A stretch of 64,000 bases of DNA. Origin: Acidobacteriota bacterium (GTDB lineage Bacteria; Acidobacteriota; UBA6911; RPQK01; CBDDCF01). Position 1 is the first letter of the stretch. The number at the start of each line of letters is the position of its first letter. Made by a program: the position numbers and the translations under genes. A model generated the notes under the pieces. That model saw nothing but the letters and a program-made list of their open reading frames with translations, made no database searches and was not told the DNA's origin. The DNA is taken from assembly GCA_965225995.1 (NCBI GenBank), contig CBDDCF010000030.1:36101-100100 (forward strand), written 5' to 3'. Shown here piece after piece: positions 3,854 to 63,068 of the stretch.

Positions 3854-5380
3854 ATGGCTAGGCACTTGGCGCGCGTCTCCAAGGAACTCAGCCGTCAGAT
3901 TGGAGTGCTGCTGACCCGGGACGGTTCGGTTCGGAATGTCATCGTGGGAGATGCCTTCCGGCTCGAGATTCCCGAGATCGGGCGTCTACGAGGCGGCACA
4001 GGAAGGTTTCGCGGTCTCCGACTGGTGCACACCCATTTGCGCAATGAGCCGCTCTCAGCGGATGATCTCAATGATCTCGCTCTGCTCCGGCTAGATCTGG
4101 TCGCCGTCGTTCAAGTGACCGCGGAGGGATTGCCGGGCCGCCTGGAATTGGCCCACGTGCTGCCCGGGACTGACTCCAGAGCTGAGCCGTTCCGCAGGCT
4201 CGAAGCCTCCCATGTCAACGAGTTGGAGTTCGATTTCCGAACTTCGATCGGAGCACTCGAGTCAGAGTTTCGACGTCTGACCCGAGGGAGTGCCGGCAAG
4301 GTTGATCAGGAGAGGGCCATTCTGATCGGTGTTTCGGGCGACAGAGGACACTTCGAGGAGACGATCGAGTTGGCCCGATCGGCAGGAGTCGGCGTCATGG
4401 CTCAGGTCTGGCAATCCCGAAACTTCAAGCCTAAGACTGTGCTGGGCAAGGGAAAACTCCAATCGGTCGTCCTCGAGAGCATGCGACAACAGGTGGATGT
4501 TGCGATCTTCGATGTCGATCTGCGCCCGGCGCAGGCCCGGGCTTTCGAAGACATGACGGGTTTGAAAGTGATTGATCGGACACAGTTGATCCTGGACATC
4601 TTCGCCCAACGGGCCCGCAGCCGGGACGGAAAGTTGCAGGTCGAACTTGCCCAGCTTCGATACTCCCTTCCAAGGCTGACGGAGCAGGATGCCGGTCTCT
4701 CGCGCCTCACAGGTGGGATCGGGGGGCGGGGGCCGGGCGAAACTGTGCTCGAGATCGGCCGGCGTCGTGCTCGCGATCGGATCCGATCGCTCGAGAAGCA
4801 GATCGAGAAGCTCTCCAGACAGAGGGACGTTCGTCGCACCCGTCGTCGTCGTCAAGGTTTGCCGGTTCTCTCCATTGTGGGGTACACGAATGCCGGCAAA
4901 AGCACCCTCTTGAATGCCCTGACCAAGAGTGATGTGAGGGTAGCCGATCAACTCTTCATGACTCTCGATCCGACCAGCCGGCGCCTCCGTTTCCCGCACT
5001 GGGGAGAGGTGATCATCACCGATACGGTCGGATTCATCTCCGATCTTCCGGTCGATCTGAAGGCGGCATTTCGGGCGACACTGGAAGAATTAGGTGAGGC
5101 CGACCTGCTGCTTCAAGTGGTCGATGCTTCCGACCCGCGACTCGACTTTCAAATGAAAGCAGTGGAATCTATCCTGGAAGAACTGAAACTGTTGGATCAG
5201 CCGCGCCTCCTGGTCCTGAACAAAATCGATCGGGTAGATGGGCCGACGCAGGAGGCTCTGAAGCGACGCTATGTGGGCGTTCCAGTCAGTTCCACCCTCC
5301 GAGTCGGGCTGGATCGGCTGTGCCGCGAAGCCGAGGAGCGGCTCCGACAAGGCGGGATCGCCCTCGAGCTCAGCTCTTAG
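3854..5380 (+). CDS. hflX: GTPase HflX (with N-terminal extension)
   Basis: HflX N-domain followed by a G domain: G1 GYTNAGKSTLLNALT, DTVGF, NKID; C-terminal HflX region. Confidence 0.9.
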   Translation: MARHLARVSKELSRQIGVLLTRDGSVRNVIVGDAFRLEIPEIGRLRGGTGRFRGLRLVHTHLRNEPLSADDLNDLALLRLDLVAVVQVTAEGLPGRLELAHVLPGTDSRAEPFRRLEASHVNELEFDFRTSIGALESEFRRLTRGSAGKVDQERAILIGVSGDRGHFEETIELARSAGVGVMAQVWQSRNFKPKTVLGKGKLQSVVLESMRQQVDVAIFDVDLRPAQARAFEDMTGLKVIDRTQLILDIFAQRARSRDGKLQVELAQLRYSLPRLTEQDAGLSRLTGGIGGRGPGETVLEIGRRRARDRIRSLEKQIEKLSRQRDVRRTRRRRQGLPVLSIVGYTNAGKSTLLNALTKSDVRVADQLFMTLDPTSRRLRFPHWGEVIITDTVGFISDLPVDLKAAFRATLEELGEADLLLQVVDASDPRLDFQMKAVESILEELKLLDQPRLLVLNKIDRVDGPTQEALKRRYVGVPVSSTLRVGLDRLCREAEERLRQGGIALELSS

Positions 5381-5437
5381 CCCGGAAAAGACACGCGTTG
5401 TCGGCTGCGATCTAGAATCAGCTCTTGGAGGCGCTGA

Positions 5438-6358
5438 ATGACTATATGTGATGCCCATTGCCACTTCTTCTCAGCGAAATTCTTCGGTCTCCTGGCCAGG
5501 CAGTCTCCGACTCTGGGAAAAGCACCAGATCCTGGTGCAGAGGCCGTGAAGCAGCTGGGTTGGGAGCCCCCCGGCACGCCGCAGGAGTTAGCCGCCCGCT
5601 GGGTCCAAGAGTTAGATCCCCACCAGGTCGGCCGTTGCGCTCTCATCGCCAGCGTACCGGGTGACGAATCCTCCGTCGAAGCGGCCGTTCAGGGCCATCC
5701 CGACCGATTCGTCGGCTACTCGATGGTTGATCCGGGGAGCTGCGACCCTAGTCAGCTGGATCGGCTTCTGAGCCGGGGTCGGATCCGGGTAATCGCTCTC
5801 TTCCCTGCCATGCATCGATTTCGGCTGGACGAGGATCAGACCATGCAGATCTTCGAGACGGTGCACCGCCACGACGGATGTGCAGTCTTTGTTCACTGCG
5901 GAATGTTAACAGTGGGAATCCGGGGCAAGCTGGGTTTAGCCAGTCCTTTCGACATTCGTCTCGGGAATCCGCTCGACTTGCAGCGAGCCCTGTCGGCCTT
6001 TCCCGACCTCCCGATTCTGATTCCGCATTTTGGAGCTGGCTGTTTCAGGGAGGCCCTGATGCTGGCCAGTCTGTATTCCAATGTCTTTTTCGATTCGTCG
6101 AGCTCCAACGGCTGGATTCGCCTGTTCCCGGGCCTCACCCTGCGACAGGTCTTTGAAACCGCGCTTCAGGTGATGGGCTCGCGGCGGCTCCTCTTTGGAA
6201 CCGATTCCTCCTTCTTTCCGAGAGGTTGGCAACGTATCATTCGAGATGAGCAGCTTCCGATTCTTGACGATATCCTGGGAGCTGAGGACGCACAGTGGGT
6301 AATGAATGGAAACTTCGGTCAGCTCTTTCCGCCGGCGCCCAACCGAGGATTATCATGA
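5438..6358 (+). CDS. Amidohydrolase-2 family metal-dependent hydrolase (TIM barrel)
   Basis: AHCHFF near the N-terminus, a conserved HCG...D pattern, and ~300 aa length typical of PF04909-like proteins. Confidence 0.45.
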   Translation: MTICDAHCHFFSAKFFGLLARQSPTLGKAPDPGAEAVKQLGWEPPGTPQELAARWVQELDPHQVGRCALIASVPGDESSVEAAVQGHPDRFVGYSMVDPGSCDPSQLDRLLSRGRIRVIALFPAMHRFRLDEDQTMQIFETVHRHDGCAVFVHCGMLTVGIRGKLGLASPFDIRLGNPLDLQRALSAFPDLPILIPHFGAGCFREALMLASLYSNVFFDSSSSNGWIRLFPGLTLRQVFETALQVMGSRRLLFGTDSSFFPRGWQRIIRDEQLPILDDILGAEDAQWVMNGNFGQLFPPAPNRGLS

Positions 6359-8256: not shown

Positions 8257-9021
8257 TCACTTCGTCTCCTTTTGGGTTCTCTGCTTGGCGGCTTCCATCC
8301 GGTAGCTGGTCACGTTCAACTCCAGGATCACGCTATGGTGAACCAGGCGGTCGATTGCCGCGGCCGTGGTCAGGGGATCCTTGAAGATCCTCTCCCAGTC
8401 CGAGAAGACCAGGTTGCTGGTCAGCAGAATCGAGCGACGCTCGTAGCGATGGGAGAGCAACGTGAAGAGAATCTCCATCTCGTCGCGATTCTGCTGTACA
8501 TACCCGATGTCGTCGATGATCAGGGCCTCGAACCGATCCAGCTTCTTGAGTTCCCTCTCCAGAGTTAGCTCGAGCTTGGCTCTCAGTAACCGCTGCACCA
8601 GCAGCGCACAGGTCGAGAACAGCACCCGCCGGTCTCGCAGGATCAACTCCTGCCCCAAAGCACAAACAAGATGCGTTTTCCCGCTTCCTGGATTACCGAA
8701 CACAAGTAGATTTTCGGCTCGGTCCAGGAAGTCTCCCTCCACCAATCCTGACAACTGCCGGTCCACACTCTGCGGGAGTCGTGAGCGATCCAATGAAGTC
8801 AGGCTCTTGTCCCAGGGAAGTTTCGAGGTCCGTCGTAGTTTCTGGATCCGTCGTTCCCGTCGATCCGCGACTTCCAGCTCCGACAGAGCCAGCAGGTACT
8901 GCGGATAAGACCAGCTCTCTGTGGTCGCCAAAGCGGCCTGCGAGCCGTGATGCTCGCGGAAGGGCGGCAGGCGAAGTTCGACCAAACACTCTTTGAGTCT
9001 TTGCAGGTTGCCTCCGCTCAT
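8257..9021 (-). CDS. istB: IS21-family helper ATPase IstB
   Basis: Walker A GNPGSGKTHL, Walker B LIIDDIGY, IstB_IS21 family length and architecture. Confidence 0.9.
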   Translation of the reverse strand: MSGGNLQRLKECLVELRLPPFREHHGSQAALATTESWSYPQYLLALSELEVADRRERRIQKLRRTSKLPWDKSLTSLDRSRLPQSVDRQLSGLVEGDFLDRAENLLVFGNPGSGKTHLVCALGQELILRDRRVLFSTCALLVQRLLRAKLELTLERELKKLDRFEALIIDDIGYVQQNRDEMEILFTLLSHRYERRSILLTSNLVFSDWERIFKDPLTTAAAIDRLVHHSVILELNVTSYRMEAAKQRTQKETK

Positions 9022-10505
9022 GGCCTCACCTCCTGCTCGTGCGTGCCGAGCAATCGGTCATAGATCTGGATGTTGATTGGTGGAACCTGGACCTGCCACC
9101 TCGGCAGAACCGGCTCTATCAGATCCTCCTTCAGGTCCTGGAACCGGGTTCGGCGGCCGCTTTCAATCCGGTTCTTCAGAGCTTGTTCGACTTTCCTTTC
9201 CCCTTCTTGGGCCGCCAGCTCCAGGATCCCCAGATACTGTCGGTCCGCCGTCTGTGGACAATCCTCTCTCAGCTCGTCGTAGGCGACTCGGAACAGGACT
9301 CCGGGAAAGCGATCTTCCCGCCAGCGATAGCGGGCAAAGGCTCCCGGCTTTCGCACCAGCGAGTGGATCACGTGCCGGTAATCGATCCGGTGCTTTCCTT
9401 CCCCCCGCAGTCGAGGCATCTCGGCTACTCGCTGCCCGCCATAACGAACTTCCACATGATCGGCATACAGTCGCGCCTCCACCTGTTCGCGGATCAAGCG
9501 GCTGTCCACCGAGTAGGTGTTGTTGCGCACTCGGATCGTGGAACTGGTTGCGACCTTCACTCGGAATCGGATGAAGTCCTCCAGGCGACGATCCGGTAGC
9601 GGCCTCATCACTTCCAGTTCTTCTCGCAGGCGTCTTTGCCGGCCAGCATTGCGTCGCTCGATGATTCTCTGGACGAACTGCTCGTAGTCCTTGCGCTCTG
9701 AGAAATCGCGACTGCCTCTGAGCAGCAGTTCCTGTTGGATGGATCGCTTGAGCCGGTGATGCGATTGCTCGACGTCTCCGTTCTCATGAGCCTTTCCGGC
9801 TTGGGTTCGGCGGCGCTTCATTCCGTAATGATCGAGCAATGTCTGGTAGCGTTCGGTGAAGGCGCCCTTCTTGAGATTGTTGACCACAGCCGATAGACGG
9901 TCTGTTCGGTGCTCGGATGGTATCGCCCCCAGTTCCCAGATCGCGTTCTGTAGTCCCAGCGTCAAACTCTCGAAAGATTCACCGAAGCACAGGGTCGTCG
10001 TCTCCCAGTTCGAGTAGGTCACGACGAAGTGATACAGCATATGAGGAAAGGGTTGCCCGGCAATCGTCACTCCCCAGCTGTTCATGAAAGTGAAGTCGGA
10101 CTGGGCTTGATGTCCGGGCTCATGATTCTGGGGAAACATCACCTCTTTCAGCTCACCGTAGTGGGCTCTCCACTGCTTGAGCCTTCGTTGGAGCGTCCTC
10201 AGTTGTCCTTCCTCGAACTTCCCCTCGTAGATCCGATTCAGGTGGTCAAAAATAGTTGTCGCCTCCACGGTTGGAGACTGTTTCAGGATCCCTTCTATTT
10301 CGGGCCAAACGGATTCATAGGGATTCGGGCGGGTGCGCCAGGTCCGCTCTGACCGGCTTTCACTCGGCAGCTTGCCCGACTTCAAATACTTCCGTGCCGG
10401 GTTCCGCGACATGCCCGCTTTGGCCGCCGCCATCGTCAACGTCTTTTCCTTTTTCCGCAATTTCATCAGTCTCCTGATCTGCTGGTCTGTAACCATGCTT
10501 GCCAT
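9018..10505 (-). CDS. istA: IS21-family transposase IstA
   Basis: N-terminal HTH (MSRNPARKYL), DDE integrase core, ~495 aa, overlaps istB. Confidence 0.9.
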   Translation of the reverse strand: MASMVTDQQIRRLMKLRKKEKTLTMAAAKAGMSRNPARKYLKSGKLPSESRSERTWRTRPNPYESVWPEIEGILKQSPTVEATTIFDHLNRIYEGKFEEGQLRTLQRRLKQWRAHYGELKEVMFPQNHEPGHQAQSDFTFMNSWGVTIAGQPFPHMLYHFVVTYSNWETTTLCFGESFESLTLGLQNAIWELGAIPSEHRTDRLSAVVNNLKKGAFTERYQTLLDHYGMKRRRTQAGKAHENGDVEQSHHRLKRSIQQELLLRGSRDFSERKDYEQFVQRIIERRNAGRQRRLREELEVMRPLPDRRLEDFIRFRVKVATSSTIRVRNNTYSVDSRLIREQVEARLYADHVEVRYGGQRVAEMPRLRGEGKHRIDYRHVIHSLVRKPGAFARYRWREDRFPGVLFRVAYDELREDCPQTADRQYLGILELAAQEGERKVEQALKNRIESGRRTRFQDLKEDLIEPVLPRWQVQVPPINIQIYDRLLGTHEQEVRP

Positions 10506-19429: not shown

Positions 19430-20593
19430 GTGCACTGTCCGATAAGTTCCCGATGTTAATAGTGGCCGAGCGATTCGCGAGCATTTTGGACCTTTGCCAG
19501 GATTGAGTCAGCAGTGGCGCGCCACTTGAAGGGCTTGGCCAAGCGTTGATTGTGAACCCGAATATATCTTTTGATTTCCTGTCTCAACTCTTGGACGCTG
19601 CTGAAAGAGTTTCTGTAGATCGAACGGCGCTCCAGCTGTGAGAACCAGCTTTCGACGGCATTGAGCCAGGAGGCGCTAGTGGGCGTAAAGTGGAGGTGGT
19701 ATCGGGGCCGCTGGGCCAGCCAGCTTTGAACCTGCTTGGTCTTATGAGTGCTCGAGTTGTCCAGGATTAAGTGGACATCCAGTTCGGGCTCGACCGCTTG
19801 ATCAATCTGGCGGAGAAAAGCCAGGAACTCCTTGGCTCGGTGCCTATTGGTGATGCGGCCCATGACCTCACCTGTCACCACATCGAATGCGGCATACAGA
19901 CTGGCTGTACCGTGGCGCTTGTAATCGTGTGTCCGGCGTTGGATCTGTCCCGGTCTGAGCTGGAGCATCGGCTGAGTTCTATCCAGAGCCTGGATCTCAG
20001 TTTTCTCGTCCACGGATAGAACCAGCGCATTGTCGGGCGGATCCATATACAGCCCCACCACATCGATTACCTTTTCGGCGAAGTGAGGATCGTTGCTGAT
20101 TTTAAAGTTGCGGACTCGATGCGGCTTCAGGTCGGCTGCCTTCCAGATCTGGGCGACTTGATGTTTGCTCACTCCGGAGTGTTCGGCCATCAGTCGCACA
20201 CTCCAGTAGGTCGATTCCCGTGGGATGCGTTCAACGGTGGCTTTGAGAATAGCTCGCACATTGGCATGCGATAGCTTCCGCGGACGGCCCGATCGAGGTC
20301 GATCCTCCAGTCCTGACACTCCCTGCTCAAGATAGCGCCTGCGCCACATTTGCACACTCATTAGCCGCTTGGAGAGCCTTTCCGCAACTTCAGTCGCCGT
20401 CAGCCCCTGGCCGCAAGCCAGAATTATTTGAGCCCGTTCGGCCAAGACTCGATCGGTCTTGGAAGCCCGCAACCAGGACTCCAGTATTCTTCGATCATGT
20501 TCGGGTAGCTTTAGTCGAATGTGGGGTCTTGCCATGCCCAACAATAGCAAACTACCCTGACAATTAACATCGGTAACTTTCCGGACAGTGCAC
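19430..20593 (-). mobile_element. IS630-family insertion sequence (1164 bp), flanked by TA
   Basis: Imperfect ~31-bp terminal inverted repeats: GTGCACTGTCCGATAAGTTCCCGATGTTAAT at the left end, and the reverse complement of GTGCACTGTCCGGAAAGTTACCGATGTTAAT at the right end. TA at 19428-19429 and 20594-20595. Confidence 0.8.
19456..20535 (-). CDS. IS630-family (Tc1/mariner-like) DDE transposase
   Basis: N-terminal HTH, DDE region (LILDNSSTHKT ... HFTPTSASWLNAVE). Confidence 0.85.
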   Translation of the reverse strand: MARPHIRLKLPEHDRRILESWLRASKTDRVLAERAQIILACGQGLTATEVAERLSKRLMSVQMWRRRYLEQGVSGLEDRPRSGRPRKLSHANVRAILKATVERIPRESTYWSVRLMAEHSGVSKHQVAQIWKAADLKPHRVRNFKISNDPHFAEKVIDVVGLYMDPPDNALVLSVDEKTEIQALDRTQPMLQLRPGQIQRRTHDYKRHGTASLYAAFDVVTGEVMGRITNRHRAKEFLAFLRQIDQAVEPELDVHLILDNSSTHKTKQVQSWLAQRPRYHLHFTPTSASWLNAVESWFSQLERRSIYRNSFSSVQELRQEIKRYIRVHNQRLAKPFKWRATADSILAKVQNARESLGHY

Positions 20594-27784: not shown

Positions 27785-28320
27785 GAATCATTGCAGGCAC
27801 TTGGAAGAAGAGGAAACTGGCGCGGCCTCCTTCGGGAGTTCGTCCGACTAGTGATCGTTTGCGCGAGGCGATCTTCTCTCACCTGGGAGCGGTGACGGAT
27901 TCCGTCTGGCTGGACGCTTTTGCCGGTTCCGGAGCGATAGGCCTAGAAGCTTTGAGTCGGGGCGCCCGATTCGTCTATTTCAACGAGCGAAACCGGGCAG
28001 CTCAGGGGCTGCTCCTGCAGAACCTTGAAATCTGTGGGCCGGAACGAGGTTACGCCCTATCGCACACCGATGCGCTCTCTTTTCTGGGCCAGTCACGGCC
28101 CGACAAAGTCGACTACATCTACCTCGATCCTCCCTATCGAGGAGGCCTTGAAAAGAGGCTTCTCGAGACGATTGAGGCCACTCCCGAACTGGCGCAATGC
28201 ATAATTCTGCTGGAGCACTTCAAGAAAACTCAACTGCCGCTGGGTCGGAGCTGGGAGCTGCTCAAGACGCTAAAGGCGGCGGATAGCCGACTGGAGATCT
28301 TGCGACTCCAGCAGCAATGA
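27781..28320 (+). CDS. rsmD: 16S rRNA (guanine966-N2)-methyltransferase RsmD
   Basis: MRIIAG, LDAFAGSGAIGLEALSRGA and LDPPY motifs. ATGA overlap with the recG stop. Confidence 0.8.
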   Translation: MRIIAGTWKKRKLARPPSGVRPTSDRLREAIFSHLGAVTDSVWLDAFAGSGAIGLEALSRGARFVYFNERNRAAQGLLLQNLEICGPERGYALSHTDALSFLGQSRPDKVDYIYLDPPYRGGLEKRLLETIEATPELAQCIILLEHFKKTQLPLGRSWELLKTLKAADSRLEILRLQQQ

Positions 28321-28664
28321 GAAAAGCATGGATGCGCTTTTTTTAGCATTTTGATACGACTTTTTGCCGTCAGCGGCATCATTAGTCGAGATGAGTCAAG
28401 TGAGTGTCTTTTTCATGCTGCTAGGGATCGCCGCTTTTTATATTGGGCTAGCCCTGGCGATTGTTCTCTACCTTGTGAGCCACCGGCTCCGTAGAGAGCA
28501 TTGAGGATCGCGGGGGATGCGAGGCGCACTCTTGGCCGACCCGGCGGAGCCAAAACGACGAGCTCGGATTGAAAGGTCGCCGAGGTCGTTTCCAACGGGT
28601 CGGCTGATTCACTGAGCCGAGGCTGTCGGGCGCAAGTCAGCGTCAAAATACCCGGCAATCGCCT

Positions 28665-29159
28665 TCAATTCTGCTCCGACACAGGACGTCCGGGCCGGCT
28701 CTCCAGCATCATCAGGGCATAGCTCTTGACTGTGCCGCCATGTCGTTTGCGGAATCTCTCGGCGTTGATTGGGCTCCGGAACGCAATCAAGCTCGGCATG
28801 CAACGGTCCCAACTGAGCTCGAATTGCCCGCCGCTTCGATCCCTCTGCACTGAAGTCTTGCAACACAGCATCACCGAACTGTTCTCAACGAAAGTTGCAT
28901 TCTCGGCCGGCAGCGACTGTCCACTCTCGTAGTCCGTCACTTCCGCTCGAGCGACGTCGCTACGTCCCTCTTGAAAATGGAGCCCGCAACGGGGACAGCA
29001 AACCTGTTTGGTTTCCCCAGTTTGTAAATGGATACGGTAGTGAGTCTTCTCTTGCAGGGGACGCAGGCAGAAATCGCATTGCCCCTCGCCCCCCAACTGA
29101 GCACAACCGAATAGGAAACAACTCAGAAATAGCCAGCTCAGGAAACGTCGCACAACCAA
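28665..29159 (-). CDS. Cys-rich lipoprotein, possibly NosL-like copper chaperone family
   Basis: Lipobox FLFGCAQ; CDFC...CCPRC zinc-ribbon-like Cys cluster; C-terminal FRKRHGGTV resembles NosL. Confidence 0.3.
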   Translation of the reverse strand: MVVRRFLSWLFLSCFLFGCAQLGGEGQCDFCLRPLQEKTHYRIHLQTGETKQVCCPRCGLHFQEGRSDVARAEVTDYESGQSLPAENATFVENSSVMLCCKTSVQRDRSGGQFELSWDRCMPSLIAFRSPINAERFRKRHGGTVKSYALMMLESRPGRPVSEQN

Positions 29160-29300
29160 CTATTTTATCAGACGCCAAAGCTGCAGAATAGAGAGCTCTG
29201 ACAACCGCCCTGGGACGGGTTGGGCGCGTCCTAAAAGCGTTGCGCAAAGATTCCTGGATCATCCAGGAAAACTTTATCTTATTTAACCAGAAAAAGGGCC

Positions 29301-29483
29301 TTGGTCCTGGTCGAAGCTGGCGCCGAGCTGAATCGTCTCGACCCTCACTTTGAGGCGTCACCCCTCGGTTGGTCGCTCGAAAATGGTCATCTCGAGGTGG
29401 CCGAAGTTCTCCACGAAAAGGGTGCTACTCTCAACGCGCGACAGATCGAGAGGTTGGAAGATCTGCGAGGGAATAAGATCTGA
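29301..29483 (+). pseudogene. Ankyrin-repeat gene remnant (about 1.5 repeats)
   Basis: LVEAGAELNRLDPHFEASPLGWSLENGHLEVAEVLHEKGATLN matches the ANK consensus. Only 60 aa, with no plausible full-length context. Confidence 0.3.
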
Positions 29484-29815
29484 AATTTTTCTTAAGATTT
29501 CTCGGCCGCACACTTGTACGTTGTTCTGCATCTATCATTTCAGACCCGTAGCAAAAACTGAAAACCGGTTTCGATCGATCGCCGTTCCTGCCGATCGAGC
29601 GCCGAATAACAGAGCGCCAAGCGGCAGCGCGAGCGCGGGAAAGCGTGGCGACGATTCGCCGAAACTCCGCTTAAAACCGGGCCAGCGCTTCCGCTTGCGG
29701 TCCCGATATCTTGCGCCTGGCGAATGCACGTCACTGCTGCGCCCTGGGCTTTGCGACTCTGATACCCGCACTTTCGCTCTGATCGGCGCGGCGGTCGATC
29801 TAAATTGACTCTTTT

Positions 29816-29863
29816 CGGATGATCCCGGCCCTGCAGCCGAAAACTCATGACTATCCGGGCTAT
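29816..29863 (+). repeat. MITE-like element, copy B
   Basis: CGGATGATCCCGGCCCTGCAGCCGAAAACTCATGACTATCCGGGCTAT. Confidence 0.4.
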
Positions 29864-30018
29864 GTCTCTGCGATTGCATTTCGTTTGTATCTCGGCGGCC
29901 TCAGCGATGTCAGCTCCTCTTGGTTCCCCGGTGAACCAGTTTGACTCCCTGCACCCGCGCTCACTAAAATCGCGCCGAGAATTGTTTCAGCGAGTCCGTT
30001 CGAGTCACCGGGGATCTG

Positions 30019-31788
30019 ATGTCCGAATACAAGAGCTTTGAAGACCAGCTTGTAAACCGCGAGACTTGGCAACATCGTTGGGGTTTTGCCGATACTCGTT
30101 TTGTCCTCAACCGAGATCGCTCCGTCGAACTCAGCGGAGATCGCTACCCCCTTTGTGGGTACCGCATGTACGATTTTATCCCGTACATCGAGAGCGTTCT
30201 GGATGTGAAACTCGACTTCGACAAACGGCGCCCTGAAGTGGAGCCAAAGCAGGTTTCGCCGACCCGTATCGACGCTGGTTTTGTGCAATCTCTCGAGAGT
30301 TTTCTGCGCTCCGATCAGATCACTACCGAGGACTCGGTCCGGCTTCAGCACAGTCATGGCCAGACGACTGCCGACGAAGTCTTCCGAGTTCTTTTCGGCC
30401 ACATCGATCGGGTTGTGGATCTGGTGGTCTTCCCAGAATCTCAAGATGAGGCTGTCGCGGTTGTTCGGCAGGCGGCGGAGTCAGGAGTTTGTTTGGTCCC
30501 TTTTGGAGGCGGCACCAGCGTGAGCAGTGCGTTGAAGCTCCCGCAGGCTGATTCGCGCTCGATGGTTGCGATCGATACGCGGCGCATGAACCAGATTGAG
30601 TGGATCGATCGGGAGAATCTGCAAGCCTGTGTACAGGCCGGTATGACAGGTCTCGAAATGGAGGCCGCCCTGGCTCGCGAGGGTCTGACTTCAGGTCACG
30701 AACCCGACAGCATGGAACTCTCCACAGTCGGGGGATGGATTGCCACCAACGCCAGCGGGATGAAGAAGAACCGCTACGGCAATATCGAGGATATTGTCGA
30801 GAACATCTCGATGATCACACCGGTCGGACTGGTTGAGCAGAAATTGCCGATTTCCCGGGCTTCAATCGGGATTCAGCCTCTCAATCTACTTTTTGGGAGT
30901 GAAGGGAATCTGGGCCTCATCACACGTGCCGTGCTCAAAGTCCATCCGTTACCTGGAGTGAAGAAGTACGGTTCTCTGGTGTTCCCAAGCTTTGAGAATG
31001 GCGTGGATTTTCTGAACGAACTGGTCTACACCGCTTACGTGCCAGCCAGTATTCGTCTGGTCGATAACATTCAATTTCGCTTCGGGCAGGCCCTCAAGCC
31101 GAGGGCAGAGGGCGGCAAGGCGTTTTTGGATCGTCTGAAGAAGCTCTATCTCCTCAAGCTCAAGGGCTTCGATCCAGACAAGCTGGCAGCCGCCACGATT
31201 GTCATGGAAGGCAGTCGCCATGAGGTGGAGTTCCAGGAGTCGAGCATCTACCGGTTGGCGAAACGGTTTCAAGGACTGCGGGGTGGGTCTGAGAACGGGC
31301 GCCGTGGCTACATGCTGACCTATGCGATTGCTTATATCCGCGATTTTCTGGCCGATTTTCACATCGTCGGAGAAACCTTCGAGACCAGTGTTCCCTGGAA
31401 CAAGATTGATGAAGTATGTCAGGCAGTGCGGAGAAGGGCCGACGAGCTGCATCGGCAACATGGCTTGCCGGGACGCTGCTACGTTTCGCATCGTGTGACC
31501 CAGATCTACCACAGCGGGGTCTGTGTTTACTTCATGTTCGGTTTCTATGTGGGCGGAGTGGAAGATCCGGAGGAGGTTTTTGCACGAATTGAACACAGTC
31601 TACGGGAAACTATTATCGAAAACGGTGGTTCGGTGTCACACCATCATGGGGTAGGGAAGATTCGTAAGGACTTCATGCGGGACACACTCAGCCCGGCGAG
31701 CATCGAAATCCTCAAGAACCTGAAAAGGTCGAGCGATCCGGCCAACATCTTTGGGATTCGGAACAATATCTTTGCCGAGGAAGAATAG
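30019..31788 (+). CDS. Alkyldihydroxyacetonephosphate synthase-like FAD-linked oxidase (AGPS family)
   Basis: FAD_binding_4 region (VVFPESQDEAVAVVRQAAESGVCLVPFGGGTS) and FAD-oxidase C-domain. The N-terminal extension and HHHGVGK C-terminal motif are typical of alkyl-DHAP synthases. Confidence 0.7.
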   Translation: MSEYKSFEDQLVNRETWQHRWGFADTRFVLNRDRSVELSGDRYPLCGYRMYDFIPYIESVLDVKLDFDKRRPEVEPKQVSPTRIDAGFVQSLESFLRSDQITTEDSVRLQHSHGQTTADEVFRVLFGHIDRVVDLVVFPESQDEAVAVVRQAAESGVCLVPFGGGTSVSSALKLPQADSRSMVAIDTRRMNQIEWIDRENLQACVQAGMTGLEMEAALAREGLTSGHEPDSMELSTVGGWIATNASGMKKNRYGNIEDIVENISMITPVGLVEQKLPISRASIGIQPLNLLFGSEGNLGLITRAVLKVHPLPGVKKYGSLVFPSFENGVDFLNELVYTAYVPASIRLVDNIQFRFGQALKPRAEGGKAFLDRLKKLYLLKLKGFDPDKLAAATIVMEGSRHEVEFQESSIYRLAKRFQGLRGGSENGRRGYMLTYAIAYIRDFLADFHIVGETFETSVPWNKIDEVCQAVRRRADELHRQHGLPGRCYVSHRVTQIYHSGVCVYFMFGFYVGGVEDPEEVFARIEHSLRETIIENGGSVSHHHGVGKIRKDFMRDTLSPASIEILKNLKRSSDPANIFGIRNNIFAEEE

Positions 31789-31809
31789 AGTACTGAACGA
31801 GGAGCCGAC

Positions 31810-32661
31810 TTGCGAGGGAAAAAGGCAATTCTGACGGGAGCTTCTACCGGATTGGGGCGAGTCCTGGCTCTCCACTTGGCCGAGCAGGGAGTTTCAATCG
31901 TGCTTGCCGCGCGCCGCCGGGACGCTCTTGATGAACTGGCCCAAGTGATCCGGGATCGGGGAGGAAAGGCGCGCGCCGTTGTGACCGATGTCTCGCTGGC
32001 GGAGGATTGCCAATCTTTGGTTAAGCAGGCGATCGACTGGCTCGGTGGTGTCGACTATCTGGTCTTGAACGCCGGAGTCAGCATGTGGGCCAGGCTGGAA
32101 GACATCTCCGATGTCTCGATCTTCGAACGGGTCATGGCGACTAACTATCTGGGTGTCGTCTACTGTGTTCACGCTGCCTTGCCCTACCTGATCGACAGCC
32201 AAGGCTTGATCGTGACGGTTTCTTCTACGCAGGCCGTCCTGGGAATGCCTCACCATACCGGTTACACTGCCTCCAAGCACGCCGTGAAAGGATTTCTGGA
32301 AGCTCTGGAATTCGAGATGGATGGTCGCATCCAGCTGTTGAACGTGATGCCTGGCTGGATTCGCGGGACTGAAATGAGAGCCCACGCTTTCGTGGGCGAC
32401 GGCACGGAGACCGGATCGACACGGCGGCACAGCAGCGAATCCGTCTCGGTTGAAGAGTGTTCCGAGGCGATTATTGGGGCCATCAAGTCAGGTCAACGAG
32501 AACTCTTCATTCCCGCCAAGCTGCGGACAGTCCCTTGGCTCAAACTGCTGGCTCCCGGCTGGCTGCGTCGCAAGATTCGTCGCGTCGTCGCGGCCCAGCC
32601 GGAATCCAAGGACCGTCGTCGCAGGCGCAAGAAGAAAGTTAGAAGAAAGCAGGAGATTTGA
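31810..32661 (+). CDS. Short-chain dehydrogenase/reductase (SDR) with basic C-terminal tail
   Basis: TGASTGLGR Rossmann motif, NAG, and YTASK active site. C-terminal RRRRKKKVRRKQEI tail. Confidence 0.7.
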   Translation: MRGKKAILTGASTGLGRVLALHLAEQGVSIVLAARRRDALDELAQVIRDRGGKARAVVTDVSLAEDCQSLVKQAIDWLGGVDYLVLNAGVSMWARLEDISDVSIFERVMATNYLGVVYCVHAALPYLIDSQGLIVTVSSTQAVLGMPHHTGYTASKHAVKGFLEALEFEMDGRIQLLNVMPGWIRGTEMRAHAFVGDGTETGSTRRHSSESVSVEECSEAIIGAIKSGQRELFIPAKLRTVPWLKLLAPGWLRRKIRRVVAAQPESKDRRRRRKKKVRRKQEI

Positions 32662-32678
32662 TTTTGAAGAGACTCTAG

Positions 32679-33131
32679 ATTGGAGACAATGCTCCCGACT
32701 TTGAAGCAGAGACGGATCAGGGAGGCACGATTCGCTTGAGCGACTATCGCGGCAAGAAAGTTGTATTGTATTTCTATCCCAAAGACGATACCAGTGGCTG
32801 TACCCGGCAGGCCTGTGCCCTGCGTGACGACCACCCCCACATTGAAGCCGCCAAAGCCGTGGTCTTGGGTGTTAGTCCCGACAGCCGGAGCTCGCACGAA
32901 AAGTTTCGGCAGAAACACGAGCTCCCGTTCACCCTGCTGGTGGACAGCGATCATGCAATCGCTGAGGCCTATGCCACCTGGGGTGAGAAGTCGATGTATG
33001 GCCGGAAGTATATGGGGATCATCCGCAGCCAGTTCACCATCGATGAGCGGGGCAAGCTAATCGACGTTCAGTACAAGGTCAGTCCGGCCAAGAGTGCACC
33101 GCTGGTATTGAAATCGTTGCAGGTCGGATAA
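32679..33131 (+). CDS. bcp: Peroxiredoxin Bcp/PrxQ; conserved N-terminus encoded upstream of the first canonical start (TTG at 32736), implying an ATT start at 32679 or a sequence error
   Basis: IGDNAPDFEAETDQGGTIRLSDYRGKKVVLYFYPKDDTSGCTRQAC. An in-frame TAG lies immediately upstream of the ATT codon. Confidence 0.7.
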   Translation: MGDNAPDFEAETDQGGTIRLSDYRGKKVVLYFYPKDDTSGCTRQACALRDDHPHIEAAKAVVLGVSPDSRSSHEKFRQKHELPFTLLVDSDHAIAEAYATWGEKSMYGRKYMGIIRSQFTIDERGKLIDVQYKVSPAKSAPLVLKSLQVG

Positions 33132-33184
33132 GGCAGCGTTTTCGAAGCGATGGGCCGGAAGCGCTGCGCTGATAAGGAGGGGTC

Positions 33185-34834
33185 ATGAAGAATCGATCTT
33201 TGTCGTTGGTTTTACTCGGTTGTGGAATGTCATTGGCAGTGGCCCAAAGGGCTCCTCAGATAGATCGGATCACAGCGGATGATCTGAAAGCGGATCTTTA
33301 CTTCCTGGGCTCAGACGAAATGGCGGGTCGCCTGACCAATACGCCGGAGAATCGTCTGGCCGCCCAGTTCATTAAATCTCGCTTCGAGGCCTTCGGGTTA
33401 GAGCCGGTTAATGGATCCTACTTCCAATCCTACTTTCTGATGACATTTCAGTTGGGAACCGAGAATCGTTTGGAGATTCGCAGCAAGGGACTGAGTCTGC
33501 AAAAGCAATTGATGAGCGATTTCGTTCCCCTTAATTTTTCGGCCACCGGCTCAGCTCAGGGGGAGTTGGTTTTCGTCGGTTTTGGCATTGATGCTCCCGG
33601 ATTTTCCCAATCCGACTACCAAGGTGACGTGCGTGGCAAGATCGTTTTAGTGATGCAGCATGAGCCGGGTGAGAATGATCCGGATAGTCGGTTCGATGGA
33701 TTAGTCTCGTCGGAAGCTTCGCGTGACATTCGAAAAGCGCTCTGGGCGCAGAAGCATGGCGCCATTGGCATTGTCTTCGTCCCAGACGTTCACAACCACG
33801 GGGAGGGGGCTAACTTCGAACGTCGGGCCTCCCGTGTCTGGCCGACCCAAAGACGAAGAATTCCCCGTTTTGCGTTGGCATCCTGGGTAGAGAAAGTGCA
33901 GATTCCAGCGGTTTCCGTGTCGACCGAATTGGCCGAACATCTGATTAGCGGCAGTGGACACTCCTTACGAGACCTGGGATTCAGGGCGGAAAACGACGGA
34001 GGGATGTCTCCGCTACCCGTTCCCGGATATCAGATTCGGATCGAGACCGAGGTAGGGCGGACCAAGATCCAGGATCGTAATGTGGTCGGATTCCTCCCCG
34101 GTTCCGATCCGGAATTGAAGGATGAAGTGATCATCTTGTGTGCCCACTACGATCATGACGGGGCAAGCGAAACTCAGGTATACAACGGAGCGGATGATGA
34201 TGGCTCAGGCACGGTGGGATTGATTTCTCTGGCCCAAGCCTACAGCGCAGCCGCTCGGGCCGGTCAGCGACCGCGCCGCTCGCTGCTGTTTGCCGCCTGG
34301 AACTCCGAGGAACGGGGCCTGCTTGGGGCTTGGACTTACACCGAGAATCCTTTGTTTCCACTACAGCGTACCGCGGCCGTGTTCAACATGGACATGATCG
34401 GCCGCAACGAAGAAGTTCCTGCCGGTGGAGGTCGCCGTTTTCGGGGCTTGGAGCCTCAGACTGCAGAATCGAACAACAACGCCGTCAATGTGATGGGCTA
34501 TACGTTCAACCGCGAACTCCGAGCGATGGCTGAGAAAACCGGGAGTGAGATGGGTCTCACTCTTCGCTTTCGCTACGACAATAACCCGTCGAATTTGTTG
34601 CGTCGCAGCGATCATTGGCCTTTTCTTCAGAGAGGGGTTCCGGCTCTCTTCTTCCATACCGGGCTGCACCCTGACTATCACCCTCCTAACGATCGCCCCG
34701 AGCGCATCAACTATCCCAAGATGGAGAAGATCCTGCGGGTCATTTATCAGTTAACCTGGGAGGTCGCAGATCGGGATGGGCTCGTCGAATTCCATCGGCC
34801 TGTTCTCGAGACTCGGGGCCACATAGAAGAGTAG
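33185..34834 (+). CDS. M28-family aminopeptidase with PA domain, secreted
   Basis: Signal peptide plus M28 zinc-ligand motifs (HYDH, DDDGSG, EERGLLG, HTGLHPDYH). Confidence 0.75.
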   Translation: MKNRSLSLVLLGCGMSLAVAQRAPQIDRITADDLKADLYFLGSDEMAGRLTNTPENRLAAQFIKSRFEAFGLEPVNGSYFQSYFLMTFQLGTENRLEIRSKGLSLQKQLMSDFVPLNFSATGSAQGELVFVGFGIDAPGFSQSDYQGDVRGKIVLVMQHEPGENDPDSRFDGLVSSEASRDIRKALWAQKHGAIGIVFVPDVHNHGEGANFERRASRVWPTQRRRIPRFALASWVEKVQIPAVSVSTELAEHLISGSGHSLRDLGFRAENDGGMSPLPVPGYQIRIETEVGRTKIQDRNVVGFLPGSDPELKDEVIILCAHYDHDGASETQVYNGADDDGSGTVGLISLAQAYSAAARAGQRPRRSLLFAAWNSEERGLLGAWTYTENPLFPLQRTAAVFNMDMIGRNEEVPAGGGRRFRGLEPQTAESNNNAVNVMGYTFNRELRAMAEKTGSEMGLTLRFRYDNNPSNLLRRSDHWPFLQRGVPALFFHTGLHPDYHPPNDRPERINYPKMEKILRVIYQLTWEVADRDGLVEFHRPVLETRGHIEE

Positions 34835-43203: not shown

Positions 43204-45180
43204 TCATCTTTGTAACGACATTAGTCGTGTGAAGATGGCCCGGACTGTCGGCGTCAGTCGACCTCGATTGTAGGCATCTCCACATTGGCGGATCGCTTCG
43301 GCGGCCGTTGGGTAGGGGTGAATCACACTGGCCAGCTTCCCGAGCCCCATTCCGGCCTGGATGGCGACACTGATCTCACTAATCAGCTCTCCGGCGTGGG
43401 GTCCGACGACGGTGGCTCCCAGGATCTCGTCCTTCCCTTTTCTCACATGGATCTTGACGAACCCGGAAGTCTCGCCGTCCACGATTGAACGATCCACCTC
43501 CGAGAAATCGTGGCGGAAGGTTTGGTACTCGACTCCCTGCTCCTCCAGATCCCTTTCGTAGAGTCCCACGTGAGCTACTTCGGGATCGGTATAGGTCGAC
43601 CAGGGGATGAGCAGGGAGGAAAACTTGTCCCGACCCAGGAAGAGAGCATTCCGGATCACCAGCCGGGCCATGAAATCGGCCACATGGGTGAACTGGAACT
43701 GGGTGGCGACATCGCCGGCCGAATAGACGTTGGGATTGCTCGTCTGAAGCCGATCATTGACCTTGATCCCGCTCCGGGTATCAAAATCGATTCCGGCTTC
43801 CTGCAGCCCCAGATTATCGACAGTCGGCTTTCGGCCAGCCGCAACCAACAGCTGATCGAATTCGAGCGACCGCTGCAGCCCGGCTTGTTCGAAGATCACT
43901 CGAATGGGTCCATCCAGGCCCTGGCTCTCAATCGAGGAGTAGCTCACTGAATATTCAAAGATCACACCGTCTTCGCGCAGACTGGCAGCCACAACGTCGG
44001 CAGCCTCCGGGTCCTCCTTGGGAAGGATTCCTGCCCGACGAGAGAATACCGTCACGGCCGATCCCAGGCGAGAGAAAGCTTGTGCCAGCTCGAGCCCGAT
44101 TGGGCCAGCGCCGATCACCCCCAGGCGGGGAGGCAGTTGGGTCAGGTTGAAGACCGACGCATTGGTTAAGAACGGGGATTCCCGAAGTCCCGGAATGGAG
44201 GGAATCGCCGCCGTTCCTCCTGTGGCGATCACGGCCTTGGAAAAACGCAGGGTCTCGCCGTTGACCCGGACCGAATCAGGGCCGCTAAAAGTGCCTCTTC
44301 CCAGAAAGACGTCGACCCCGAGTCTGGCAAATCGCTCGGCCGAGTCATGCGGAGCGATGTCGGCTCGAATCCGACGGAGTCGTTCCATCACGGCCGGGAA
44401 GTCGACCGATACCTGTCCATCGATTCGGATCCCGAATTCTGCGGCCCGTTTTACAGCCGCTGCCGCTCGCGCACATCGAAGCAAGGCCTTGGAGGGCACG
44501 CATCCTACGGTGAGACAATCCCCACCCAAGAGATGAGACTCGATCAGAGCGACCCGGGCTCCCAGGCCGGCTGCCGCAGCTGCCGACACCAGTCCACCCG
44601 TTCCCCCTCCAAGCACGACCAGATTGTACCGTTCCGCAGGGTTAGGGGCCTCCCACCGAGCGGGATGAGCGTGATCGAGAAGCCGGGTATTGTGATCGTC
44701 GAGGGGAGCGATGCCAATCTCTTCCAAATCTTCGGCGGGGAACTCTCCCAGCCTGTCATCCCGCTCCGGCAGTCGCGGTTGCAGCGAATCAGCAGTCGGA
44801 CCGGTCGGGCCCAGAAAATCGGCCCAACTAACCTTGCTTCCATCCGATCTTGTAGCCACCTGACCGTGTTCTTCGTCTTTGGCAAAGCGGTAGAATAAAT
44901 AGTCATCCCGGAAGGGATGAGCCTGCTGAACATGATGGAAGATACCGGCACTGAGCAGAATGTTTCCGATCCGCAAAGCGTCTGCGATATCGCTGGCGAA
45001 ACCTTCACGAATCAGCACCTGAACGGCCTCGCTTCCCACGAAGCATTTGAGGTAGGACTTGGCCGGAAATCCGTGCTTTCGGTCCGCAATATCGAATAAC
45101 TGATGAGTGCGTTGGGCCAGAGCCTCTAGTTCGTTTTTCGAAAATTGGGCCTCTTCCCCTGGGCGATCCTGCTGTGTCAT
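43204..45180 (-). CDS. Pyridine nucleotide-disulfide oxidoreductase (class I flavoprotein disulfide reductase) with N-terminal DEP-like domain
   Basis: Redox-active GGDCLTVGCVPSK, two FAD/NAD Rossmann GxGxxG motifs, C-terminal dimerisation domain. The N-terminal ~190 aa contain FPAKSYLKCFVGSEAVQVLIREGF...LRIGNILLSAGIFHHVQQAHPFRDDYLFYRF, which matches the DEP-domain consensus. Confidence 0.65.
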   Translation of the reverse strand: MTQQDRPGEEAQFSKNELEALAQRTHQLFDIADRKHGFPAKSYLKCFVGSEAVQVLIREGFASDIADALRIGNILLSAGIFHHVQQAHPFRDDYLFYRFAKDEEHGQVATRSDGSKVSWADFLGPTGPTADSLQPRLPERDDRLGEFPAEDLEEIGIAPLDDHNTRLLDHAHPARWEAPNPAERYNLVVLGGGTGGLVSAAAAAGLGARVALIESHLLGGDCLTVGCVPSKALLRCARAAAAVKRAAEFGIRIDGQVSVDFPAVMERLRRIRADIAPHDSAERFARLGVDVFLGRGTFSGPDSVRVNGETLRFSKAVIATGGTAAIPSIPGLRESPFLTNASVFNLTQLPPRLGVIGAGPIGLELAQAFSRLGSAVTVFSRRAGILPKEDPEAADVVAASLREDGVIFEYSVSYSSIESQGLDGPIRVIFEQAGLQRSLEFDQLLVAAGRKPTVDNLGLQEAGIDFDTRSGIKVNDRLQTSNPNVYSAGDVATQFQFTHVADFMARLVIRNALFLGRDKFSSLLIPWSTYTDPEVAHVGLYERDLEEQGVEYQTFRHDFSEVDRSIVDGETSGFVKIHVRKGKDEILGATVVGPHAGELISEISVAIQAGMGLGKLASVIHPYPTAAEAIRQCGDAYNRGRLTPTVRAIFTRLMSLQR

Positions 45181-58597: not shown

Positions 58598-60252
58598 CTA
58601 GCCCGGATTATGCAAGAACCGTAGGCCGGAGTTGAAAAGAGAGTCGAAAGTGGCCTAAATCGGGAGATCGAAGGTGCGACAGGCGGATTTTCGAGGGATC
58701 TCTGTGGACGAGCCGTGTGGAGTAGGTGGGGGAGTGAATTTCAGACGGAGTTGGGCCTGAATGAGTGTCCTAAACGATCATTCGGGAGCTAGGAGAGGCT
58801 AGCTGGAGTTAAGGCGATTCAAGACGAGGAGGAAAAGGGCCTGCTCCGGAAAGCCGGAGGAAAGATGGGCCCAGATGCGTCGAGTGGTTTGTCGAACCCG
58901 CGCCCCAATTTTGAGGACCCGGCGACGCAAAGTTTCGATTTCGAGTTTCTGCCAGGGGGTTCCATACAGATAATCGCGGAGTCGGACGAACATCTGGTAA
59001 GCCAGCCCATGCAGGAGAAGTCGAAACTGGTTGGCCAGGAATCGATGACAGCTCAGCCGATCCATACTCAGATGGTTCTTAAAAGCCTTGATGAAGTTCT
59101 CCGACTGTCCTCGATCGGTGTAGTGATCATAAAGGGACTGGGAAGAGAGATCGTCTCGGTTGGTGACCACAAAGCGACGATTGATCCCCCGATGGTCGAC
59201 TTCCACTTTGACGATGACGCGACGGAATCGATCCCAGCTGCTGGCTCGATAAAGAAACTCGTCAAACTGACGCTGTTTTTCCTCGAACTCGTCGAACCTG
59301 AGTCGAGTCGACTCGAGCATCGGCTCGACCATCCGTTGCCGGCGGGGGTTCCGGCTTAACCCAATGACATATTGGAGTTTGTTCTCTTCAGATTCACAGA
59401 ACTCGTAGAGCCGAGGCGTGGCAAAGCCGCTGTCGGCCCGGATCTCAATTTGAAGTTCCTTGCCAACTTCTCGTCGAATGGCTTTCACGATTCGTTTCAG
59501 AATAGGAACGATGTGAGAGGCAGCCCCCTTGTTTCCAGGCCTCAATACGACAGTGACCAGGTCCCCCGTAACGGCATCGAAGATCAGCCAAGGATGCAGA
59601 ATGTGGTTTCGGTAATAGCCGTGGTAAAAAGAGAATTCCTGTTGGCCGTGAGTGTGGTCGTCAGTACTGTCCAGGTCCAAGATGACCGGGTCGGGGCGTC
59701 TCTTCTTCAGCGAGCGGACATAACGCTGTAGGAACCCCCGGCTCAGACGCATGAGATCCTTCTTGCTGACAGAGTTTTCCAAACGGGAAAAAGTTGCCTG
59801 GGTGGCCAAGTCAGGATCGCTCTCAGGTAACTGATCACAGACGGTCTTGAGCATGGGATCCGAGCGCAGCGTGTCCGCGTCATTGCAGTCTTCGTACCCG
59901 GCAACGATCTGAAAGACTCGTTGTCGGATCAGCTGTAACTGCTCATGACGAACGTAGCGTTGGTCCCGGCTATCCGCAATACACGAACTGAAGTCCTCGC
60001 AGAGTCGATCTTGCCGATCCAGGGAACCAAACAACAGCCATCCGGCATCGGAAGTCAGGTTCCCACCATCAAAACGAGCCGTGATTTGTGTGTGCGAGTG
60101 AAATGCCAGGGTGGTCTGACAGACTGGGTTTGACATTGCCGTAGTTCTCCGATAAGGATTTGTTTAATAAACCCTTTTATATCAGAGAGATACGGCATTT
60201 TTTCTGGTCCCCAATCCACTCGAATCCGGATCTCTTGCATAATCCGGGCTAG
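58598..60252 (-). mobile_element. IS1380/IS4-like insertion sequence (1655 bp) with perfect 20-bp terminal inverted repeats
   Basis: CTAGCCCGGATTATGCAAGA at 58598-58617 and its exact reverse complement at 60233-60252. If CTAG is the target duplication, the TIR is the 16 bp beginning with CC. Confidence 0.75.
58799..60136 (-). CDS. DDE transposase (IS1380/IS4-like, DDE_Tnp_1)
   Basis: 445 aa; DLDSTDDHTHG and DSGF acidic motifs. Confidence 0.75.
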   Translation of the reverse strand: MSNPVCQTTLAFHSHTQITARFDGGNLTSDAGWLLFGSLDRQDRLCEDFSSCIADSRDQRYVRHEQLQLIRQRVFQIVAGYEDCNDADTLRSDPMLKTVCDQLPESDPDLATQATFSRLENSVSKKDLMRLSRGFLQRYVRSLKKRRPDPVILDLDSTDDHTHGQQEFSFYHGYYRNHILHPWLIFDAVTGDLVTVVLRPGNKGAASHIVPILKRIVKAIRREVGKELQIEIRADSGFATPRLYEFCESEENKLQYVIGLSRNPRRQRMVEPMLESTRLRFDEFEEKQRQFDEFLYRASSWDRFRRVIVKVEVDHRGINRRFVVTNRDDLSSQSLYDHYTDRGQSENFIKAFKNHLSMDRLSCHRFLANQFRLLLHGLAYQMFVRLRDYLYGTPWQKLEIETLRRRVLKIGARVRQTTRRIWAHLSSGFPEQALFLLVLNRLNSS

Positions 60253-62973: not shown

Positions 62974-63068
62974 CGGCGCATCCTACGAGGGATGCAGCTC
63001 TCAATGGCTCCTGAAAATGGCCGGTTTTGAAGTGGCCCTCACTGGCCGCTTTTGGGTGGCCCCTGACA

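Follow-up and report, generated by a model that had tools for sequence, protein, structure and literature searches.

In animals, ether-lipid synthesis runs from alkyldihydroxyacetonephosphate synthase (AGPS, EC 2.5.1.26) to DHRS7B/PexRAP (EC 1.1.1.101), enzymes of the peroxisome and endoplasmic reticulum. DHRS7B is the mammalian reductase of alkyl-dihydroxyacetone phosphate (alkyl-DHAP) (PMC7517302, PMC13200781), and is held in the membrane by an N-terminal transmembrane helix (PMC7517302). AGPS has been described from bacteria before; Myxococcus xanthus carries MXAN_1676, which is about 42% identical to human AGPS (PMC9131029), and agps homologues have been noted in Acidobacteria, although they were not linked to acidobacterial ether lipids (bioRxiv 10.64898/2026.06.23.733905; PMC13159169). 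Here, we analyse a 64-kb stretch of DNA from an uncultured, soil-type Acidobacteriota bacterium (contig CBDDCF010000030.1, positions 36,101 to 100,100; hereafter the window), in which an AGPS-like gene is followed by a gene for a short-chain dehydrogenase/reductase (SDR). Judging from sequence comparisons and gene linkage, the two genes are probably a bicistronic operon that encodes both committed steps of the AGPS-dependent ether-lipid pathway, leading to 1-O-alkyl-glycerol-3-phosphate as in animals.

The AGPS-like protein

The first gene of the pair (30019-31788, forward strand) has an ATG start and encodes 589 aa; the second (31810-32661, forward strand) has a TTG start and encodes 283 aa. 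An earlier reading of the window, made from the sequence only, had placed both open reading frames (ORFs) at these positions, and a second, independent gene caller, run on the 7.44-Mb metagenomic source contig (ENA ERZ28763718 ctg125702), reproduced both genes at equal lengths. The AGPS features which that reading had claimed for the 589-aa protein, namely an N-terminal extension, an FAD-binding domain and a C-terminal HHHGVGK, are all present, the last as SHHHGVGK at residues 540-547. Pfam alone assigns only generic domains to this protein, with nothing specific to AGPS: FAD_binding_4 at residues 134-272 (PF01565, 122 bits) and FAD-oxidase_C at residues 312-578 (PF02913, 143 bits).

Since these domains are common to the whole VAO/GlcD superfamily, and NCBI labels the homologues merely "FAD-binding oxidoreductase" (JGI names many of them "alkyldihydroxyacetonephosphate synthase"), the protein might be a generic FAD-linked oxidase of the glycolate or D-lactate dehydrogenase type that lies beside an unrelated SDR by chance. 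The comparison with all PDB sequences effectively refutes this. Guinea-pig AGPS ranks first (E 3.6e-160, 537.8 bits, query residues 17-582 aligned to 93-656), with 43.6% identity over 562 aligned residues, and an E-value of this size means that the resemblance is not by chance. Dictyostelium AGPS comes second (E 7.5e-89, 302.3 bits), followed by D-lactate dehydrogenase (E 5.5e-28, about 101 bits); glycolate oxidase reaches E 1.6e-23 and about 87 bits, and no solved FAD oxidase outside AGPS (the D-lactate dehydrogenase, GlcD and D-2-hydroxyglutarate dehydrogenase class) scores above 101.4 bits. With 538 bits for AGPS, the clustering with D-lactate dehydrogenase or GlcD that the sequence-only reading had named as speaking against it is not seen. 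The NCBIfam equivalogs for GlcD likewise stay far under their cutoffs (144.9 vs 567.9 for TIGR00387; 78.1 vs 897 for NF008408). The AGPS-specific N-terminal domain is present as well, residues 17-130 aligning to residues 93-200 of guinea-pig AGPS, with W21, G22, D25, T26, R42, Y43 and others invariant (alignment A1). Together with the HHH loop, and with an adjacency to the SDR gene that is conserved in six phyla (see below), this domain also argues against a generic oxidase beside an unrelated SDR.

We judged which residues matter in AGPS from PDB mutant entries and from general knowledge of the enzyme. Two entries are one-residue mutants, as read from the alignment: 4bc7 (ASIRL to ASIHL, R419H) and 4bca (CIYF to CIFF, Y578F). 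Guinea-pig Y578, R419, HHH 615-617, H300, T309 and R566, whose roles are taken from the published structures, correspond to Y504, R346, H541-543, H227, T236 and R492 in the window, and these are invariant in 121/121 bacterial homologues. The AGPS catalytic residues are thus kept, and the loss of AGPS-specific residues, also named beforehand as a point that would count against the assignment, is not seen. On these sequence grounds, the 589-aa protein is an AGPS orthologue. Neither it nor the SDR has a transmembrane segment, and the base composition of the gene pair is that of its flanks.

An orthologue could still have drifted to another alkyl/acyl exchange substrate, in which case the SDR would process that product and the outcome would be a minor, signalling or storage lipid. 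This idea fits the M. xanthus AGPS knockout, in which ether lipids were little affected (PMC9131029), as well as sponge metagenomes that contain bacterial agps and showed no short-chain plasmalogens; nor is agps tied by lipid data to acidobacterial ethers (bioRxiv 10.64898/2026.06.23.733905). However, all checked active-site residues are the mammalian ones throughout the bacterial homologues, and the operon partners found elsewhere (a glycerolipid-type acyltransferase and an acyl-CoA-reductase-like protein, discussed below) are those which the canonical reaction requires. We therefore regard a drifted substrate as quite unlikely. In the canonical reaction, for which the strong orthology argues, the enzyme would use FAD, Tyr504, Arg346 and His541-543 to exchange the acyl ester of 1-acyl-dihydroxyacetone phosphate (acyl-DHAP) for a long-chain fatty alcohol, giving 1-O-alkyl-DHAP.

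The SDR and its relation to DHRS7B

The SDR gene begins 22 nucleotides (nt) past the final base of the AGPS stop codon, as had been claimed, which leaves an intergenic gap of 21 nt. A Shine-Dalgarno sequence can be read in this gap (GAGGAG, 31799-31804, forward strand), 5 nt before the TTG. The protein belongs to the classical SDRs (PF00106, 159 bits), and Pfam gives it no significant match to Epimerase (PF01370). It carries TGASTGLG (the TGxxxGxG motif) at residue 9, NAG at 87 and YTASK (YxxxK) at 152, as well as LAARRR at residues 31-36, after strand beta-2. Basic residues after beta-2 in SDRs typically indicate a preference for NADP(H). In an alignment and profile of 28 AGPS-linked SDRs (A2), N112, Y152 and K156 do not vary, and the conservation of R35 is 90% or more.

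Database names for the family are all generic ("SDR family oxidoreductase"), with no KEGG-style DHRS7B among them. The best NCBIfam model for the window SDR is NF004825/PRK06181, matched over its full length at 263 bits (cutoff 215). The same model is also the best one, above cutoff and over the full length, for dog DHRS7B (P0131, 226 bits), mouse DHRS7B (P0224, 233 bits) and an AGPS-linked SDR of Marinimicrobia (236 bits); second SDR paralogues from the same marinimicrobial operons fail its cutoff. We used a human DHRS7B sequence as bait only, and the conclusions rest on the database entries it retrieved, which are named DHRS7B by their sources and match it at up to 97-100% identity. The A2 profile scores DHRS7B at 153-160 bits, compared with 140.5 bits for the best single-domain SDR in the PDB (clavaldehyde dehydrogenase) and about 118 bits for 11beta-HSD1. 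Aligning the AGPS-linked SDRs with DHRS7B by hhalign gave a probability of 99.95 over 254 columns, the C-terminal ...LAPG... helix included. We propose that the SDR is an NADPH-dependent acyl/alkyl-DHAP reductase of the DHRS7B type.

The polybasic tail that the sequence-only reading had pointed out is indeed there, the protein ending in ...KDRRRRRKKKVRRKQEI. It does not define the family, as the extreme run occurs only in the window and in the sister genome L082. The cationic C-terminal segment as a whole (32500-32658, forward strand) covers residues 231-283; these last 53 residues have a net charge of +16, compared with -3 for the core. Within it, the lineage-specific polybasic extension (32599-32658, forward strand; residues 264-283) contains RRRRRKKKVRRK, which is limited to the window SDR and L082 and is not found in relatives at about 67% identity. 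Across the family, the conserved element is a C-terminal segment that is basic and amphipathic (...KLRxxPWLKLxAPGWLKxxIxRAV...). The SDR has no hydrophobic segment, the maximum Kyte-Doolittle average over 19 residues being 1.33. The C-terminal segment is probably a peripheral anchor, and its cationic, partly amphipathic character would tether the enzyme to the anionic inner-membrane surface, the site of its lipid substrate. The window and L082 also differ by a 37-nt indel at the 3' end of the SDR gene.

From the gene linkage and this subfamily placement, the SDR would use NADPH to reduce the C2 ketone of 1-O-alkyl-DHAP, giving 1-O-alkyl-sn-glycerol-3-phosphate. Ordinary PlsC-type acylation and head-group enzymes would then lead to sn-1 alkyl ether (plasmanyl) glycerolipids. 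Such a pathway would be AGPS-dependent and of the "aerobic type", with oxygen-independent chemistry. Since AGPS chemistry gives sn-1 ethers only, it cannot alone explain diether or tetraether lipids.

Conservation, partner genes and surroundings

More than 5,300 database proteins match the window AGPS at E 1e-30 or better, the nearest being proteins from Acidobacteriota metagenome-assembled genomes (59-68% identity). Homologues with 53-66% identity are also spread over species-representative genomes of Acidobacteriota, Marinimicrobia, Chloroflexota, Cyanobacteria, Poribacteria, Planctomycetota, Actinomycetota and further groups. We surveyed 79 AGPS genome loci with downstream sequence. In 38 of these, an SDR orthologue (42-56% identity) lies 12-167 nt downstream of AGPS on the same strand; the loci concerned belong to Acidobacteriota, Marinimicrobia, Poribacteria, Planctomycetota (Thermoguttaceae) and Chloroflexota. 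The pair was also present in 7/7 further contexts fetched by exact protein look-up, one of them from Gemmatimonadota. The AGPS-SDR adjacency thus spans at least six phyla. In relatives, the gap ranges from 21 to about 135 nt, and the two genes overlap by 1 nt on a Gemmatimonadota contig (L089) and by 4 nt on an acidobacterial chromosome (L087).

The genes flanking the pair are different in every acidobacterial genome examined, so the conservation is confined to AGPS and SDR. The pairwise distances of the two proteins co-vary across 32 loci (Mantel r 0.88, reached by 0/2000 permutations), although shared species phylogeny contributes to this correlation. At least 14 of the top SDR matches also lie on contigs equal in size to those of top AGPS matches.

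Other arrangements are found around AGPS. Four loci from Anaerolineae/Chloroflexota (L026, L030, L033 and L053) have no SDR, and beside AGPS have one or two FAD oxidoreductases (about 526 aa) that resemble phytoene desaturase or amine oxidase, which may represent a different downstream modification of ether lipids. In three cyanobacterial loci (L024, L038 and L074), a PlsC-type acyltransferase lies upstream of AGPS and an NF004825-type SDR is absent; one of them (L038) has another SDR, about 30% identical, directly downstream. An apparent AGPS fusion in an actinobacterial locus (L077, 992 aa) was rejected, as Pfam finds no further domain in it and the ORF is over-extended. We also rejected a link to cultured myxobacteria through the SDR homologue of Hyalangium rubrum, which has no AGPS gene beside it.

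Clustering all ORFs around the AGPS loci revealed two recurrent same-strand neighbours: a PlsC/GNPAT-type acyltransferase (PF01553; NHxxxxD and FPEGTRG motifs) in 23 loci, and an HMG-CoA-reductase-family (HMGR-like) protein (PF00368) in 18 loci. The order HMGR-like gene, acyltransferase, AGPS, SDR occurs in 16 loci, mostly from Marinimicrobia. The HMGR-like proteins match PF00368 at 337 bits and fall short of the equivalog for true HMGR (287 vs a cutoff of 441.8); they are 38% identical to N-terminally extended homologues in Chloroflexota. An N-terminally extended HMGR homologue, FcrA, is an experimentally proven fatty acyl-CoA reductase, whose co-occurrence with AGPS its authors noted; its reduction is a four-electron one and needs no separate aldehyde reductase (PMC11948995). 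The HMGR-like gene of the operon may thus encode a fatty acyl-CoA reductase of the FcrA type. In Marinimicrobia and allied lineages, the suppliers of acyl-DHAP and fatty alcohol would then lie within the operon itself. If these assignments hold, the four genes would provide fatty alcohol, acyl-DHAP, alkyl-DHAP and its reduction, the full eukaryotic "peroxisomal" set.

These findings bear out the sequence-only reading in preferring an ether-lipid pairing to a generic FAD oxidase; the cassette crosses phyla, its SDR falls in the subfamily model of DHRS7B, and elsewhere it is joined by an acyltransferase and a candidate fatty-alcohol-forming reductase. A wider claim is that uncultured bacterial phyla widely share an ether-lipid pathway like that of eukaryotes, complete and encoded in an operon, with AGPS-SDR as its conserved core. 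It would consist of an acyltransferase, a fatty-alcohol-forming reductase, AGPS and an alkyl-DHAP reductase of the DHRS7B type, with an HMGR-derived FcrA replacing FAR. This may be so, but we lean towards doubting it.

The marinimicrobial four-gene operons often contain extra redox genes, which encode an aldo-keto reductase (upstream of the HMGR-like gene) or else another SDR (L042, L044, L045, L050, L067 and L069; L049 and L052 at 3154-3942; L012 at 8681-9451; L016 at 5254-6051). This second SDR belongs to a different subfamily (best model NF005437, or NF004825 below cutoff).

The pair could serve ether-lipid synthesis with the SDR catalysing another redox step, reducing a fatty aldehyde to the fatty alcohol for AGPS, or acting mainly on acyl-DHAP on the route to lysophosphatidate. 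The acidobacterial loci have no adjacent source of fatty alcohol, a gap which the SDR could fill, and in some marinimicrobial operons the second SDR and the aldo-keto reductase could divide the redox steps; the substrate specificity of an SDR is also not readable from its sequence (PMC13256971). However, an orthologue of the SDR is kept in operons that already have the HMGR-like candidate fatty acyl-CoA reductase (PMC11948995). There, the HMGR-like gene, the acyltransferase and AGPS would cover the other steps, so that ketone reduction would be left for the retained SDR. The subfamily model shared with DHRS7B also argues against another redox step, and since DHRS7B takes both acyl- and alkyl-DHAP, the acyl-DHAP variant is hardly a distinct hypothesis. 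Overall, we think it unlikely that the SDR has such a different role.

Several observations weigh against the proposed AGPS-SDR pathway. The lead of DHRS7B over other SDRs in the profile comparison is modest (about 157 vs 140 bits), and NF004825 is a broad family. The N-terminal transmembrane/peroxisomal targeting region of DHRS7B is absent from the SDR, which starts at the Rossmann fold and aligns from DHRS7B residue 50; what is missing serves targeting, is specific to eukaryotes, and includes nothing catalytic. In Dictyostelium, the top BLAST match to DHRS7B is not the functional reductase (PMC13256971). As SDR function is so poorly readable from sequence, gene linkage is the main evidence here, and subfamily placement is supporting. 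SDR folds do not help either, being too uniform to tell substrates apart. The linkage itself has exceptions: the SDR is missing downstream of AGPS in about half the loci, which belong to Anaerolineae, Cyanobacteria, Actinomycetota and, in two cases, Acidobacteriota, and the Hyalangium rubrum SDR (44% identical) is not adjacent to an AGPS gene. When the AGPS gene of M. xanthus was disrupted, ether lipids fell only slightly (PMC9131029), which makes the quantitative role of bacterial AGPS uncertain.

Partner genes are also missing near the window pair. The 64-kb window contains no acyltransferase, FAR, FcrA, ElbD, PlsA/Ger or CarF-like gene. Neither a PF01553 nor a FAR domain occurs in it, and Pfam scans of 39 window ORFs yielded only housekeeping and insertion sequence (IS) genes. 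Searching the window by tblastn with the AGPS-linked acyltransferases and HMGR-like proteins gave a single, spurious 33-bit match. No such partner gene lies within 10 kb of the pair in the other acidobacterial genomes examined either. Since the suppliers are not encoded beside the Acidobacteriota pair, the genes for acyl-DHAP and fatty alcohol must lie elsewhere in the 7.4-Mb genome.

Upstream of the AGPS gene, about 850 nt (29164-30010) are gene-poor and not conserved in L082. A consensus scan found a sigma-70-like promoter candidate here (TTGACT-18-TAAAAT, 29941-29970, forward strand), about 50 nt upstream of the AGPS start; the scan is weak (3 sites vs 1.8 expected), and the promoter region is not conserved in L082. 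No RNA element was detected by Rfam (E up to 0.1) over 28000-34000. Further upstream, an uncalled 37-aa ORF (MSQVSVFFMLLGIAAFYIGLALAIVLYLVSHRLRREH; 28391-28504, forward strand) encodes one hydrophobic helix and a basic tail. It is conserved in L082 at about 87% DNA identity, and as the changes are mostly in third positions, it is probably a real small membrane protein. On the reverse strand, 28665-29159 encodes a 164-aa Cys-rich protein with a lipoprotein-like N-terminus and no Pfam match; L082 has an uncalled ORF for a protein of 78% identity.

Downstream, a Bcp-type peroxiredoxin gene (32664-33131, forward strand) starts at TTG 32664, 3 nt past the SDR stop, with an AGGAG inside the 3' end of the SDR gene. 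Its codon 5 is an in-frame TAG (32676-32678), which is GAG in L082. Because of this TAG, gene callers start at TTG 32736 and give a product shortened to 131 aa, although the conserved peroxiredoxin N-terminus (IGDNAPDFEAETDQGG...) is encoded upstream of that start. The TAG may reflect a nonsense mutation or an error of assembly, or it may be read through. The window is dense in IS elements, with two IS21-type units (transposase and IstB; 8257-10505 and 60707-62973), an IS630-like DDE_3 transposase with a partial copy (19456-20550 and 62852-63682) and a DDE_Tnp_1_4 transposase (58799-60136). It also encodes a 658-aa fusion (43204-45180, reverse strand) of a DEP domain at the N-terminus, of a kind normally met in eukaryotic signalling, with a pyridine-nucleotide-disulfide oxidoreductase that has its dimerisation domain.

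Relation to known ether-lipid systems

Aerobic Acidobacteria are a source of alkyl glycerol ethers, and also of the brGDGTs (branched glycerol dialkyl glycerol tetraethers) used as palaeoclimate biomarkers. The two-gene cassette is a compact, directly testable candidate for the formation of sn-1 alkyl ethers, and it puts a name on a missing bacterial reductase step that is publicly annotated only as "SDR family oxidoreductase". If the wider claim of a complete pathway is true, the cassette would be a major unrecognised source of 1-O-alkylglycerol lipids (monoalkyl glycerol ether, or MAGE, type) in aerobic Acidobacteria and marine Marinimicrobia, and the marinimicrobial four-gene operon would be a ready-made module for heterologous ether-lipid production. 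We found no description of a bacterial alkyl-DHAP reductase or of this conserved cassette in the searchable literature, the coverage of which is incomplete; the conserved AGPS-SDR operon architecture is possibly unreported so far.

Two bacterial systems yield the same class of product, sn-1 alkyl/alkenyl glycerol ethers: the ElbD/elbB-E cluster (Myxococcus, Acidobacteria SD4) and PlsAR/Ger of anaerobes. Their enzymes and chemistry (a multidomain reductase-acyltransferase, or the reductive conversion of an existing ester) are unrelated to those proposed for the window, and the window contains no homologues of the ElbD cluster or PlsAR/Ger. Closer is the M. xanthus operon MXAN_1676-1675-1674, which is likewise led by AGPS and has a downstream gene of the NAD(P)-dependent reductase type; its AGPS is about as similar to the human enzyme as that of the window is to the guinea-pig one. 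Unlike this operon, the window has two genes rather than three and no FAR-GNPAT (FARAT) fusion gene, and it has a classical SDR (DHRS7B type) as its reductase in place of a member of the extended-SDR epimerase/dehydratase family. The four-gene operon of the Marinimicrobia type shares orthologous AGPS and SDR genes in the same order, although its first two genes are not found near the pair in the window or in the Acidobacteriota examined.

The comparison with animals is the most direct, as the same two families would act in the same pathway order. The window AGPS is 43.6% identical to the guinea-pig enzyme with identical catalytic residues, and the SDR falls in the NCBIfam model of DHRS7B. Differently from animals, the bacterial genes lie in one operon, the window AGPS has no peroxisomal targeting signal, and GNPAT and FAR are not adjacent; neither the N-terminal transmembrane domain nor the Pex19-binding segment of DHRS7B is present in the window SDR, which has a cationic C-terminal tail instead (PMC7517302). 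The debate on whether eukaryotic plasmalogen synthesis came from bacteria has left AGPS and the reductase undecided (PMC13012113), and the cassette adds the reductase step to this debate. If the wider claim is true, the DHRS7B-family step would bear on this origin in having, like FAR, GNPAT and PEDS1, a bacterial, operon-linked counterpart.

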